This document shows positions 26,359-60,456 of a stretch of DNA of 64,000 bases, piece after piece. The stretch is from contig JABXKD010000002.1 in the NCBI GenBank assembly GCA_013375475.1, positions 50,313 to 114,312 on the forward strand. Direction: 5' to 3'. Each line of letters begins with the position of its first letter. Within the stretch, counting starts at the first letter, position 1. Below the pieces are notes generated by a model. The model saw nothing but the letters and a program-made list of their open reading frames with translations, did no database searches and was not told the DNA's origin. This stretch comes from Promethearchaeota archaeon (GTDB taxonomy: Archaea > Asgardarchaeota > Lokiarchaeia > Sigyniarchaeales > SOKP01). The translations under genes and the position numbers were made by a program.

Positions 26359-26970
26359 TTAAAATTCAAGGAAGCCAGGGTCATCAAAGATATCTTCAAT
26401 TTTCTTTTCTTTCTTCATATCGCTTTCGTCGTGTTCTGTAAATAAAGATTCATCGTCAGTTTTAATTCCCTTTTCCAATTCTAGAGAATCTAATTGAAGT
26501 AATGCGTTTTTCTCTAGCCTTTTATATCCTTCGGCTTTCATTTTCCATTTATTTACTTCATCAATATTTACTTTATCTTCGTCTTCTAAGGCTTCAGCAG
26601 CTTTAGCTTTACAAATGTCAGTTAATATTGAATAAGATAAAGCTAATTCTCCCCATTCGTTCTTTTTTTTTAACTTTTCGACACGTTTTTCTAATCTTTG
26701 AAGTTCTTGATCAGCATAATGAATATCGATGAAATCTCCAAACGCATCAACAGGTTCTGATATCGAATTAACGAGTACTTCCTTTACTAAACCGCAATGA
26801 CCGCATTTTACGGTAGCAATTGCGCTCTTTCTAATATTTTCCACTTTTACCGATTTTTCACCGCAATCCATATTGAATGGGATATCCATTTAATTATTTG
26901 GGCAGGTGAAAATCTTAGGTACTCTCTTAACGCGTTTATAAGTTTGTTGTTTTCTTTTTCTTCTTCCCAT
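26359..26970 (-). CDS. elf1: Transcription elongation factor Elf1 with C-terminal extension; split by a 30-nt BHB-like intron (193 aa after splicing)
   Basis: Exon 1 MGRRKRKQQTYKRVKRVPKIFTCPN and exon 2 CGEKSVKV...VKCGHCG...EPVDAFGDFID give the Elf1 signature; GGTG SD upstream of ATG 26970. Confidence 0.88.
26866..26895 (-). other. Putative BHB-type mRNA intron in elf1 (30 nt, in-frame TAA)
   Basis: Exon-exon helix TTCACC(T)GC/GCGGTGAA, central CCAA/ATGG (one A.A mismatch), bulges ATA and ATT, inner hairpin ATT-A-AATGG/CCATT-C-AAT. Confidence 0.8.
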
Positions 26971-27314
26971 TATTCAAACACCATCAGCTAAATATAATTA
27001 ACAAAGCATAACAAAAAAGTTTTGTCATATTTAAAAATAGATTAAAGTAACAGAAAAATTAAATGAGTTCTTTAAAACTCACTTCCAAAGTAAAAACTTT
27101 ATTTTTATTAGATAAAATATATTTATTTAAAAGAAAAAGAACCCTAAGAATTTACAGAGAAATAAAACTATATTTTAAGAAAACAAAAAAATAAATTTTC
27201 GCTTTTCTAATTGTAGAATAGAGGAAACCGAAAGATTTTTTAGGAATGATTAATTAATTCAATTACTCTTTTTAGCTGAAATAAATGATTGATTTATAAT
27301 ATTGTTAGTGGATT

Positions 27315-28421
27315 TTGGGTATGGAGCACACGAATTTGTCAATTGAACATGATAAAATCTTGATAGAGAAGGTTCTTGACGATATCGATATGAGATATAT
27401 CGTTTTATTTCTCTATATCATTAGAAACGATTTATTTAGGGATTTAAATAATACAGAACTAATTGAATCATACGAGAAAGTACTAATTTTAGATGAAATT
27501 TTTAAAGATAATATCCTAAACTTCTGGGATAATGAATTTATAGAAGTAGCTGTTGATTTAGGCTTATTTAAAAACATTCGAAGTATGAGAGAGTTTCAAC
27601 AAAAAGAGGACGATTTCATAATTCGGTTAGGAGAAGAAACAGTAACTATAGAAAATGACACAATATCCGTACCAGATCATTCATTATTCTTAATGATAAA
27701 TAAGAAATTTAAGTTTCTTACACGACGGAATTTTAACTCAGCTTTAATAAAATTGAAGGGAGTAAGGTGTCAAACAAGTAATATAATCCACCCGTTTGTC
27801 TCTGAAATAGGAGATAATGATTTCACAATTCCCGATGATATTTACTACATTTTAGATCAGTATGGTAATATTTATCAAGCAATTAAGATAGAAATTACAA
27901 TCGAAGGGATCTATCAAAGATTTTTGGAAATCCAAGAAAAAATTAATGAATTTATCGATATTTTCGAGCCTAAATTAAGAACAAAACCGGTTTTAAAGAA
28001 AGTACATGAAGCTATAAATGACAAAAAAGATATCATCAAATATTTGAAAGATGAAAAAATAGAACTCCCTGATAAATTTGCCTATAATGAAAATGATATC
28101 GAAAATTTAACTTTTAAAGATTGGAATTCTAAATTGATTCTATTATTGAAATATACATTTGAAATACAGCAAATAGAGACTAAACTTTTAGAAATTAAGA
28201 AATATTATTCAGGAAAGAGTAAAAACTTTAATTATCTTGAATTTATTGAGAAAGTGTCTTTTAATGAAGATAATATCGTAAATTCTATTCAAAGTGCTTT
28301 AATAAAACTTAGAGAAGAACTATTAGAAACTAATAATGAACTTGAACAACTAACGAAAAAAGATTTAAAATTATTAAATTTAGATTTTGAAAGATACTTA
28401 ATAACGAGTCGTGATGATTAA
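27315..28421 (+). CDS. Hypothetical protein, helical/winged-helix-like N-terminus plus C-terminal coiled coil; first gene of an 8-gene operon
   Basis: Long ORF, heptad-rich C-terminal half, tightly coupled to the downstream gene. Confidence 0.65.
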   Translation: MGMEHTNLSIEHDKILIEKVLDDIDMRYIVLFLYIIRNDLFRDLNNTELIESYEKVLILDEIFKDNILNFWDNEFIEVAVDLGLFKNIRSMREFQQKEDDFIIRLGEETVTIENDTISVPDHSLFLMINKKFKFLTRRNFNSALIKLKGVRCQTSNIIHPFVSEIGDNDFTIPDDIYYILDQYGNIYQAIKIEITIEGIYQRFLEIQEKINEFIDIFEPKLRTKPVLKKVHEAINDKKDIIKYLKDEKIELPDKFAYNENDIENLTFKDWNSKLILLLKYTFEIQQIETKLLEIKKYYSGKSKNFNYLEFIEKVSFNEDNIVNSIQSALIKLREELLETNNELEQLTKKDLKLLNLDFERYLITSRDD

Positions 28422-28423
28422 TC

Positions 28424-29380
28424 ATGAAATGCACAGCATGTAGCATCGAAATGGAAGTTTTAGTTCCTGGAATTTACCAATGTCCTCAATGTAAAAAAAT
28501 ACAAAAACAAAAAGATGACAAACGCGAGGAAGACGAAGAAAAGAAAGTTGAAAGTGGTCAATTTCTTGACGGAGAATACTTCCATAAGAACGCAAGTCTT
28601 AATAAAAAATATGAAATATCTGAAAAGGGAATAATCATCAGTAAATCTGAAACGCGTTTATTTGCTACCTTGATTTGCCATAGTGCTTATTTAACAGATG
28701 AAAAATACGTAAGACTGTCATGGTGGAAAAGTTATCAACATGCTGGTATGTTTAAAATCTACGATAAAGAAGTTTTGAAAAATGTTATTACAGCGTTAGA
28801 AAAAGTTAATGAAAGCTTCGACGATTTTTGGACGTGGAGTGGAAAGTACGGAAAACAGGAACCTAAGTCAAATGAGATCATAGAAAAAGAGAAACATTTA
28901 GACCTTCTCAAATACCGGATAATTGAAAACCGAACATGTCCAAAATGTCAAAAAAAAATGAAGAAAGAAAAATCTCATTACGAGTGCCAAAACTGTGGCG
29001 AGATAGTTATCCTCGAAGGTTACAATCAACCTATCTTCAACATATCGTCTGAAGAACTTGAATTAACTTTTCAAACTAACTTCCCTATTAATTATTATAT
29101 GCCAGTAAGCGGTATTACTGTGAAATGGCTAATGGGGGAATGGAAGGCATTAGCAGTTATTCATTCTAAAGATAACCCCAATAAAAAATGGCTCAGGTTT
29201 TATTGGTGGATAAGAGATTTAAGTAATGTTTTAAAATATGGGCAAAGAGAGATAGGAGAAGGTACACAAATGGGCTGGAAAACACAAAGAGGAGTAGCTT
29301 CTCCAAATATTTATGACAGAAAGGTAATAATTCCTTTAATTAAAGCGCTACAGAAAATACAGGAAGATTTAAATTGGTAA
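28424..29380 (+). CDS. Protein with two Zn-ribbon plus beta-rich repeat units
   Basis: CTAC..CPQC and CPKC..CQNC, each followed by a homologous unit (KYVRLSWW..IYD..ALEKV / KWLRFYWW..IYD..ALQKI). Confidence 0.7.
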   Translation: MKCTACSIEMEVLVPGIYQCPQCKKIQKQKDDKREEDEEKKVESGQFLDGEYFHKNASLNKKYEISEKGIIISKSETRLFATLICHSAYLTDEKYVRLSWWKSYQHAGMFKIYDKEVLKNVITALEKVNESFDDFWTWSGKYGKQEPKSNEIIEKEKHLDLLKYRIIENRTCPKCQKKMKKEKSHYECQNCGEIVILEGYNQPIFNISSEELELTFQTNFPINYYMPVSGITVKWLMGEWKALAVIHSKDNPNKKWLRFYWWIRDLSNVLKYGQREIGEGTQMGWKTQRGVASPNIYDRKVIIPLIKALQKIQEDLNW

Positions 29381-59286: not shown

Positions 59287-59364
59287 AGTTAAATATTATA
59301 TAGTTCATATTAATTATACATAAAATATAGAAAACCGATAGTATATTAGAAACAAAACAGCTGA

Positions 59365-59775
59365 GTGTTTATCCATATGGTATCAAGGTTAGAACTTGTA
59401 TTAAAAGAGTTAAACGAGAATGGGAACTTTAGAGCGTCCTTGTATTCAACATCCACAGGATTAGTTTTAGCTTCCCAAAAAGCAGATGATGTTGATGATA
59501 GAGTAGTTGCCGCGATGAGCTCGTTATTGAGCGATGCAGCATATAAAGCTTCTGAGGAAATGCATTTGTCCCTCCTTTCAAGTTTAAAAATTAAATATTT
59601 AGAAGATTATATTGTGTGTAGAAATATAATCATGCCAGATCAAAAAACACAGTTTATCTTAGCAGTTTTATCAAAAAAACCCGAATCATCAGAAATAGAG
59701 TCTTATTACGATCAACTCCTAGATTGGGCTGTGGATAACGCGACTCCTGATTTAGAAAAGCTTTCTTCTATTTAG
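59365..59775 (+). CDS. Roadblock/LC7-like protein
   Basis: Helix, then STSTGLVLAS, VAAMSSLL and beta strands; ~130 aa. Confidence 0.75.
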   Translation: MFIHMVSRLELVLKELNENGNFRASLYSTSTGLVLASQKADDVDDRVVAAMSSLLSDAAYKASEEMHLSLLSSLKIKYLEDYIVCRNIIMPDQKTQFILAVLSKKPESSEIESYYDQLLDWAVDNATPDLEKLSSI

Positions 59776-59781
59776 GAATCT

Positions 59782-60456
59782 TTATTCTATTATCGATATA
59801 TAAAATTCATATGCTTCTTTAGCAACTTCTTGTTCATATCCGGAATAGAAATGATCTGCTCCATCGATTATTCTATACTTTTTTGGTTCTAAGTAGAAAT
59901 TATAATGGTTCTCAAAATTTTCATATCTCGCCAAATTATCTCGATTTCCTTGAATAAATAATTTAGGTTTTTCACTTTGAGAAAAATTTTTGTATTCTGG
60001 ACCCATAAAGTCCCATGGAAAAGAAATAGCACAATAACCAATAATTGTTTTAGAATAGTTTACTGCAGAACACCCTATAGCAGCACCATAGGAATAGCCG
60101 AGGATCAATATTTTTTCACATTTTTGCTCGTTTACAAGAAAGTTAATACAAGCTTTCGTGTCACTTAATTCACCCATACCATTAGAATGATCTCCTATAG
60201 AATTTCCAACACCCCTGAAATTAAACCGTAAGCATGAAATATTATTTTGGGTAAAATGATTAAAAATACCAGATACTACATTATTATACATGTTGCCCCC
60301 GTATTTTCCCTTTTTAGGGACTTAAATCCCGCAAAATTGAGGATGCGGGTGGCAGACTAAAGTAGCGATAGGGAAATTTTCTAAACTTGATAGAAATAAC
60401 TCTGTTTCAAGTCTAATATTATTATTGTTTATGAATATTTTTTCAGTACTACGCAT
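59782..60456 (-). CDS. Alpha/beta hydrolase (HPHP-GG family) split by a 33-nt BHB intron (213 aa after splicing)
   Basis: Exon 1 MRSTEKIFI...LVCHPHPQ and exon 2 YGGNMYNNVV...RFNFRGVG.S...GYSYG...GNRD...ADHFY. Confidence 0.88.
60305..60337 (-). other. Putative BHB mRNA intron (33 nt, in-frame TAA)
   Basis: Outer helix TGCC(A)CCCG-C-A/T-A-CGGG-GGCA, central TCCT/GGGA, bulges CAA and AAA, inner TTTT/AAAA plus GGGAT/GTCCC hairpin. Confidence 0.85.

Follow-up and report, generated by a model that had tools for sequence, protein, structure and literature searches.

The question raised by this locus is how a protein gene can be expressed when a short insert with a stop codon interrupts its most conserved motif. 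The locus is a stretch of 64,000 nucleotides (nt) from an Asgard archaeon of the Lokiarchaeia (contig JABXKD010000002.1, positions 50,313 to 114,312 of the forward strand, assembly GCA_013375475.1), referred to below as the window. Two unrelated genes in it, elf1 and a gene for an alpha/beta hydrolase, carry such inserts. In our reading the inserts are very probably bulge-helix-bulge (BHB) introns in protein-coding genes, spliced by the enzymes that serve the tRNAs, namely the splicing endonuclease EndA and the RNA ligase RtcB. Under this mechanism folding of the pre-mRNA would bring together four bases of the exon, immediately before the 5' splice site, and four at the 3' end of the intron, and the central helix so formed would be flanked by two 3-nt bulges, the hairpin of the intron and a helix between the two exons. 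EndA would cleave each bulge behind its second base, and RtcB, together with archease, would join the exons and restore the frame. That both cleavage and ligation take place in the cell, with EndA as the nuclease, we infer from the sequences described here.

Both inserts are found where the initial annotation of the window had placed them, on the minus strand and with an in-frame TAA each; they are 30 nt long in elf1 and 33 nt in the hydrolase gene. With the elf1 insert removed, C-P-N is joined to the C-G-E-K of the zinc ribbon, and the match to the Pfam profile Zn_ribbon_Elf1 continues through the insert (E 3e-12, covering profile positions 1-76 of 79). The hydrolase, which matches Abhydrolase_11, Hydrolase_4 and Abhydrolase_1, has its H-P-H-P-Q joined to Y-G-G-N-M by the same operation. 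The inserts had been said to sit inside the most conserved motif of each protein and to be removed exactly by the standard cuts, and the joined sequences do match the insert-free alleles of congeners. The claim that both fold into BHB or BHB-like motifs was also borne out, near-canonically for the hydrolase and in a relaxed form for elf1. The hydrolase motif consists of a 3-nt bulge CA|A, a helix of four base pairs, UCCU/GGGA, and a second 3-nt bulge AA|A, set between a G+C-rich exon-exon helix and the intron hairpin; the predicted fold of 73 nt has an energy of -24.8 kcal/mol and a z of -3.0, and none of 200 shuffles was equally good. In elf1 the central helix is CCAA/AUGG, with three pairs and an A.A mismatch, the bulges are AU|A and AU|U, and the exon-exon helix flanking the insert has 12 pairs; the 70-nt fold has a z of -1.95, a value equalled by 4 of 200 shuffles.

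Each gene was searched against 40 related genomes, and the inserts turned out to be present in some species and absent from others, such that introns have been gained and lost within one genus. The elf1 insert occurs in 10 of the 24 loci of the genus, with a length of 30 nt in six, 28 nt in one and 32 nt in three; the remaining 14 loci are exactly 30 nt shorter and have C-P-N/S-C-G contiguous. A second genome collection gave 42 elf1 loci, 40 of them spanning the site, with an insert of 28, 30, 31 or 32 nt in 17/40 and none in 23/40 (eight of these 23 missed the sequence pattern and were scored by eye). When the insert is 28 or 32 nt long, the two exons of elf1 fall in different frames. Of 23 genus loci, 17 have the hydrolase insert, with a length of 30, 31 or 33 nt and a stop that is TAA, TGA or TAG depending on the relative; the other six lack it, as do all seven loci of other genera. 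The description of the inserts as multiples of three therefore holds for the 30 and 33 nt of the window and fails beyond it, where lengths of 28, 29, 31 and 32 nt occur (28, 31 and 32 nt in elf1, 31 nt in the hydrolase gene, 31 nt in the proteasome alpha gene psmA and 29 nt in a DUF6125 gene, the last two of which are introduced below). A variable length that breaks the frame, a variable stop and sister alleles that lack exactly the insert together mean that the inserts are neither translated nor errors of assembly.

An alignment of the orthologs, proposed by the initial annotation as a way to look for presence or absence and for compensatory pairing, brought out covarying helices beside the insert-free alleles. 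When the BHB model is laid on 10 aligned elf1 sequences, 90.4% of the cells are paired, against 36-52% after a shift of the partners by 1-3 columns. Both sides have changed in three pairs, and the covariation score was reached by 0/500 shuffles, although such counts overstate the number of independent events because the relatives are kin, which must be held against our reading. The signal is modest, and we take these figures as consistent with a BHB rather than as proof of one. All 17 distinct elf1 introns keep the BHB layout, next to a flanking codon that is AAU, AAC, CAA or GAA. The 28-nt and 32-nt alleles are canonical, with a perfect CCAA/UUGG central helix, and the distant alleles flanked by CAA or GAA have different intron ends that again pair with the codon. 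In the elf1 gene of genome G024 a synonymous exon change from CCA to CCG goes with a change from U to C in the intron. A similar case is seen in psmA, where the synonymous Gly change from GGA to GGU in the exon is compensated by U to A in the intron, swapping an A-U pair for U-A; between this genome and G015 the hairpin stems of the psmA insert are entirely different and the loop is the same. In the hydrolase gene UCCU/GGGA and both bulges are invariant in 14 introns, and the hairpin varies in sequence and length but stays a hairpin (14 of the 17 rows were compared, those of G015, G022 and G006, with 30, 31 and 31 nt, being left out as mis-anchored). The pairing between exons is also stronger where an intron is present. 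The mean energy of the exon-exon duplex in elf1 is -8.9 kcal/mol with the intron (n=12) vs -4.6 without (n=21), and in the hydrolase gene it is -11.6 kcal/mol with the intron (n=17) vs -7.4 (n=6) and -7.2 (n=7) without. Compensatory change that keeps the base pairs, a criterion for an archaeal BHB intron, is found in elf1, in psmA and in the E2-like gene described next.

Scans by structure alone are uninformative in a genome of 32.5% G+C, and further introns were therefore sought by homology, ignoring structure, with open reading frames (ORFs) compared with genomes by tblastn in both directions. The comparison covered this genome (G000, an assembly of 288 contigs with 6.4% estimated contamination), 1.69 Mb (~44%) of G017, a congener without either of the window introns, and 400 kb of G032, a genome of a different genus; introns common to the comparison genome or without a stop are missed by this approach. 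With the window pair included, this genome has seven predicted introns in six genes. Three of the five additional ones, in the genes for the ATP:corrinoid adenosyltransferase CobA, for proteasome alpha and for a DUF6125 protein, came from the comparison with G017, which also recovers the window pair, and the other two, both in one gene, from the 400 kb of G032. This last gene, judged by its motifs, is presumably that of an E2-like enzyme; it runs off the end of contig C226, and its two inserts frame a micro-exon. Its introns are both canonical, with central helices UCCC/GGGA and CUCC/GGAG, and 19 congener loci are free of the inserts as judged by match length and stop count. The psmA insert is present in 2 of 24 loci, at 30 nt here and 31 nt in G015. 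Three more genes with inserts were found in G017, and the E2-like gene of G005 (L281) has three inserts of 30 nt, one of which is the shared E2-like intron with a different hairpin and the second canonical. The third has no stop and, on hand inspection, no clear BHB, with a 9-base-pair exon-exon helix around it; this one could be either a relaxed intron or a genuine insertion of 10 residues. Altogether, inserts occur in at least eight gene families of one Asgard genus, with up to three in one gene. Thus the initial claim of inserts in several unrelated genes grows to six genes and seven introns here, plus at least four others in congeners. No such insert was seen within the 400 kb of G032, a small, low-identity sample that is not evidence of absence. 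The coordinates of all these features are collected in Table 1.

Table 1. Genes, exons and predicted introns discussed in the text. Positions refer to the window unless a contig is named.
Feature	Position	Strand	Description	Basis
elf1 exon 1	26896..26970	-	25 codons, ATG to C-P-N	ORF list and translation
elf1 predicted BHB-like intron	26866..26895	-	30 nt, in-frame TAA	fold and insert-free alleles
elf1 exon 2	26359..26865	-	starts at second Cys of CxxC knuckle; stop codon included	
alpha/beta hydrolase exon 1	60338..60456	-	119 nt, ends inside Gln codon after H-P-H-P	
hydrolase predicted BHB intron	60305..60337	-	33 nt, in-frame TAA	near-canonical fold
hydrolase exon 2	59782..60304	-	stop codon included	
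RtcB RNA ligase	14483..15790 (Pfam match extent)	-		PF01139, 560.7 bits
archease	13775..14194	+	divergent from rtcB	PF01951, 142 bits
winged-helix gene	16104..16868	-		weak MarR_2 and HTH_47 matches; tblastn comparison with G017
tRNA-Tyr	1786..1876	+	21-nt insertion in anticodon loop	Rfam tRNA, 58.5 bits; ARAGORN also calls a tRNA
CobA (ATP:corrinoid adenosyltransferase) insert	C111, 65116-65145		30 nt inside P-loop	PF02572, E 1.3e-49
psmA (proteasome alpha) insert	C286, 1114-1143		30 nt between G-G and R-P-F-G	PF00227 and PF10584
DUF6125 gene insert	C248		29 nt	
E2-like gene, two inserts	C226, ~31390-31500 (L260/L261)		39 and 30 nt, with 24-nt micro-exon between	
G017 winged-helix gene insert			30 nt, BHB	ortholog of the window gene beside rtcB
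G017 acyl-CoA dehydrogenase-like gene insert			33 nt	
G017 low-molecular-weight phosphatase insert			21 nt inside C-X5-R loop	

The inserts found by homology offer a test of the motif, since structure had no part in finding them. In this test the boundaries could be shifted only where the shift gave an identical joined sequence, and the rule called for at least three of the four central pairs and a closing pair on each side. Six of the eight homology-found inserts follow the rule, compared with 4.7% of 199,948 random sites treated alike (binomial tail 2.7e-7). At least three of the four central pairs are present in 8/8, and all four in 5/8. The two that fail have one extra bulged base each, on the outer side in CobA and on the inner side in the phosphatase. 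A full central helix with both bulges is seen in the hydrolase, CobA, both E2-like inserts and the winged-helix, acyl-CoA dehydrogenase-like and phosphatase genes of G017. In the eight inserts of the test the first intron base is always A. The predicted junctions, joined in silico, equal the sequence of an insert-free congener allele in elf1, the hydrolase, psmA and the E2-like gene, and they equal the protein of the homolog in CobA, DUF6125 and the three G017 genes. In all there are 12 inserts of BHB type, seven in this genome, three in G017 and two in G005, and most are canonical by inspection. The lengths range from 21 to 39 nt, with 30 nt in 7 of the 12 (taking the allele examined), and this prevalent length and the constant first base hint at a common origin or at a size optimum for the enzyme. 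In the cases found, the sites are inside conserved motifs: the zinc knuckle, the P-loop, the CX5R loop of the phosphatase and the stretch between G-G and R-P-F-G of proteasome alpha.

The genome also encodes the enzymes that this mechanism calls for. The archease/RtcB pair noted at the outset is present in the window, both genes being recognised by Pfam match; the rtcB gene is the only copy found in the genome, and there is one archease. Two EndA paralogs are encoded in the genome, by PF01974 genes with scores of 99.1 and 70.4 bits and ORFs of ~200 amino acids; C215:33041-33265 and C133:34125-34373 are the positions of the catalytic domains. The host therefore has both a splicing endonuclease and an RtcB-type ligase, as is expected for a BHB intron. 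Two paralogs would be consistent with an enzyme of alpha and beta subunits, a subunit type that is predicted here. The Asgard EndA is described as an (alpha-beta)2 type with an L1 insert, or loop, linked to broad substrate specificity, and relaxed BHB forms are among the reported substrates of the alpha-beta type (PMC5829648, as far as the source was available). The ordinary substrate of this machinery is seen in the tRNA-Tyr gene of the window. Of the two BHB tRNA introns that had been claimed for the window this is the one that stands; the second was not found with ARAGORN or Rfam. Over the whole genome ARAGORN reports introns in 22 of 44 tRNA genes, several of these calls being doubtful. 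A tRNA-Lys(UUU) at 496-568 on the minus strand of the window reaches just 31.3 bits with the Rfam tRNA model and has seven non-standard pairs; a non-canonical intron may be concealed in it, or the gene may be degenerate. The gene next beyond rtcB in the region 13775-16868 is the winged-helix gene whose ortholog in G017 bears an intron; the copy in the window has none.

It is worth asking whether the inserts could be overcome without any splicing. In translational bypassing the ribosome hops over a segment of an mRNA that is never cut. The known bypass elements, those of T4 gene 60 and the byp elements of yeast mitochondria, are short, contain a hairpin and an early stop and need not be a multiple of three in length, and the present inserts resemble them in being short, in having a hairpin and often a stop soon after the exon and in not being bound to multiples of three. 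Read by hand, the last codon of exon 1 is also the last codon of the insert in two of eight inserts (the G017 winged-helix gene and the phosphatase), but in the other six the take-off and landing codons are unmatched, and the peptidyl-tRNA could therefore not re-pair. Bypassing also leaves unexplained the helix of four base pairs between exon and intron with its two 3-nt bulges in fixed register, the compensatory changes between exon and intron, and the stronger pairing between exons, and we regard it as highly unlikely. We give no better chance to the view that the genes are truly split, or are decaying pseudogenes, with halves translated alone and a BHB-like fold that is incidental. Translation Table 11 does yield two ORFs per gene, and an intact second psmA paralog, 46% identical, is present in this genome. 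The breaks, however, fall inside the CxxC zinc knuckle, the P-loop, the CX5R catalytic loop and the proteasome G-G/R-P-F-G, so two separate chains are implausible. Many species have kept the interruption, with inserts of varying length, and the helices covary. There is a single elf1 match in this genome, and among 10 intron-bearing species (45 pairs) exon 1 of elf1 has 347 synonymous vs 48 non-synonymous codon differences and exon 2, over its first 80 codons, has 946 vs 393; these ratios indicate that both exons are under purifying selection and that elf1 is not decaying. A start codon inside the intron would suit separate halves. The 30-nt and 32-nt elf1 introns (loci L011, L012 and L015 included) do have an AUG after the stop and in frame with exon 2, which could permit exon 2 to be translated by itself from unspliced RNA and in this respect counts against splicing. 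By hand reading this AUG is not conserved: the 28-nt allele has it out of frame and the divergent allele L202 lacks it, and for that reason it is probably incidental.

A closer relative of our reading would have the inserts removed from the RNA by another nuclease or system, with RtcB doing only the sealing and the resemblance to a BHB being partial. Several of the motifs are indeed relaxed, and the third insert of the G005 E2-like gene has neither stop nor clear BHB. RtcB is also able to ligate cuts made by enzymes other than EndA, as in the XBP1 mRNA cut by IRE1. The animal "SOS splicing" is a further example (PMC12779559, in the part available). Against this, most of the 12 BHB-type inserts are canonical and have cuts that restore the frame, exactly what EndA takes as a substrate, and relaxed forms are reported for the alpha-beta enzymes in the available part of PMC5829648; a different nuclease is quite unlikely in our view. 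The thought that the inserts are artefacts of assembly or binning, which the initial annotation had itself raised, draws on the number of contigs (288), the estimated contamination of 6.4% and one apparent frame break that is a run of N; the inserts recur at the same sites, with diverged sequence, in many separately deposited assemblies, and the chance of an artefact is close to nil. Group I and group II introns and inteins were rejected as candidates, as they are defined by a ribozyme core of hundreds of bases or a protein-splicing domain, and the inserts are 21-39 nt long with stops or a frame shift; Rfam has no intron family in the window.

Several observations weigh against splicing by EndA and RtcB and should be stated together. 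Of the 10 introns examined in detail, three are relaxed, with three of four central pairs (elf1 in this genome, psmA and DUF6125), and two further ones depart on one side, CobA by its outer one-base bulge and the phosphatase by its extra base at the inner junction; the relaxed and departing forms are putative substrates of this EndA. Splicing is deduced from sequence, and three public RNA runs are without a contig in the bin that holds elf1. Seven public runs share sequence with the window, at 5-11% of the sampled words, and four of them, the three RNA runs included, were compared over positions 17000-36999, with the hydrolase outside that range. Scans of the genome for a BHB joined to the merging of ORFs gave no excess: 1009 sites vs 959.5 in shifted controls under strict rules, and 3402 vs 3325 in controls under relaxed ones. 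By pair weight the hydrolase came 2nd among 417 short candidates in the strict scan, and 69 other rows that were inspected looked mostly like non-coding frames or neighbouring genes. A junction-homology filter on the relaxed scan left 36 sites, of which just three, CobA, elf1 and the hydrolase, had 13 or 14 identical residues out of 14 across the junction. Structure alone does not mark the sites of introns; the scans give no census, but they exclude hundreds of strict cases. The suggestion that many introns are hidden in this lineage is thus upheld to the extent that homology revealed more of them and not to the extent of hundreds. The further idea that expression may be gated by splicing activity stays at the level of a prediction, as does splicing itself. 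A genome probably has ~10-20, a figure extrapolated from the comparative sample and not counted.

A number of candidates from these searches were rejected, and some of the loci showed other features. Window positions 46168-46234 proved to combine a spacer with antisense sequence of a neighbouring gene; C111:71594, C122, C235 and C244:68603 had poor flanks or lay at gene starts; the flanks were also poor at C111:10439 and in the one row from G032; and the apparent frame break in C272 was the run of N mentioned above. Ten other comparison rows were low-complexity sequence or frame shifts of 1-2 nt. A further 12 rows from G017 were HdrA-MvhD genes, fused in G000 and separate in G017. HdrA-MvhD-like proteins of ~800 amino acids are encoded by single ORFs in G000 (C277, C55, C144, C217), and in G017 four paralogs (L092, L127, L139, L144) are divided between two frames where the domains meet, which looks like fusion or fission and not like introns. 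In a well-conserved gene, L143 of G017 has a frame shift of 1 nt relative to a 263-residue ORF on C209 of G000, which may mark a pseudogene, a case of programmed frameshifting or an error of sequencing. Contig C9 ends in part of a further E2-like gene without inserts (9188-9396), whose DNA is 84% identical to that of C226 in the exon they have in common; this copy may be paralogous or, given the contamination estimate, belong to a second organism in the bin. Beside the intron-bearing psmA, in the opposite orientation, the C-terminal half of that gene is partly duplicated (C286, 1783-2103, plus strand), at 83% identity and with one TAA.

Endonuclease-spliced introns in archaeal protein genes have so far been treated as a curiosity, and here they are predicted in at least six genes of one genome. 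Asgard hosts would make several matters testable, namely the handling of interrupted mRNAs under coupled transcription and translation, any limit that splicing sets on core genes, and the origin of introns. Since gene callers split or truncate these genes, Asgard annotation and presence/absence calls will be in error at such loci, including the eukaryote-like elf1 and E2-like enzyme. A more speculative thought, toward which we lean less than away, is that the inserts form a living population of mini-introns, mobile or generated by copying, which settle where the exon supplies half of a BHB and so are often found in conserved motifs, and which still come and go among the protein genes of this genus. 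The expression of core genes, such as those of proteasome alpha, Elf1 and an E2-like enzyme, would then be tied to tRNA-splicing capacity in a cell that has no nucleus, and the closest prokaryotic relatives of the eukaryotes would have interrupted protein genes that work and evolve.

How does this compare with what is known? An intron in the pre-mRNA of cbf5, which codes for a pseudouridine synthase, was reportedly described in Crenarchaeota by Watanabe in 2002. In Desulfurococcales and Sulfolobales the tRNA splicing endonuclease excises this BHB intron, which has been gained and lost among lineages, according to the part of PMC2738675 that was available. The likeness is close, as both cases involve a BHB intron in an mRNA with gain and loss among related lineages. 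The difference is that cbf5 is one crenarchaeal gene for which RNA evidence exists, whereas the present introns are spread over at least eight families, include a micro-exon and are known through their sequences. In Haloferax volcanii a BHB in the HVO_1309 mRNA is cut by the splicing endonuclease in vivo and in vitro, and that paper of 2020 still speaks of "one mRNA" besides its own (PMC7714728, available part). HVO_1309 differs in being a single euryarchaeal mRNA, and the same part of PMC7714728 does not make it evident that the segment is a frame-restoring intron of a coding sequence. Our search of the literature, which covered sources outside the subscription journals, returned only cbf5 and the one Haloferax mRNA as archaeal precedents and none for protein genes of Asgard archaea.

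The eukaryotic parallels are the HAC1 and XBP1 mRNAs, which are cut by IRE1 and then ligated by Trl1 or RtcB, with a change of frame on splicing. A second example is the RTCB-dependent "SOS splicing" of animals (PMC12779559, available part). They resemble the present system in the removal of a short mRNA segment without the spliceosome, guided by structure and sealed by a tRNA ligase, but they use another nuclease and another motif and belong to regulated eukaryotic responses to stress or in defence. The BHB introns of archaeal tRNAs and rRNAs share the motif and the predicted enzymes; they lie in structural RNAs, while the exon halves of the helices described here must also encode protein. 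The tRNA genes of Asgard archaea are described in a preprint as intron-rich, with repeated gains at positions able to form a BHB, and its main text has the word "mRNA" 0 times and "protein-coding" once, for neighbouring genes, although its supplements might differ (10.64898/2026.10.13.758758). The mechanism itself is thus a known one, and what is new is its predicted use on many unrelated protein genes of Asgard archaea, with gain and loss that can be seen among relatives and a micro-exon between two introns.

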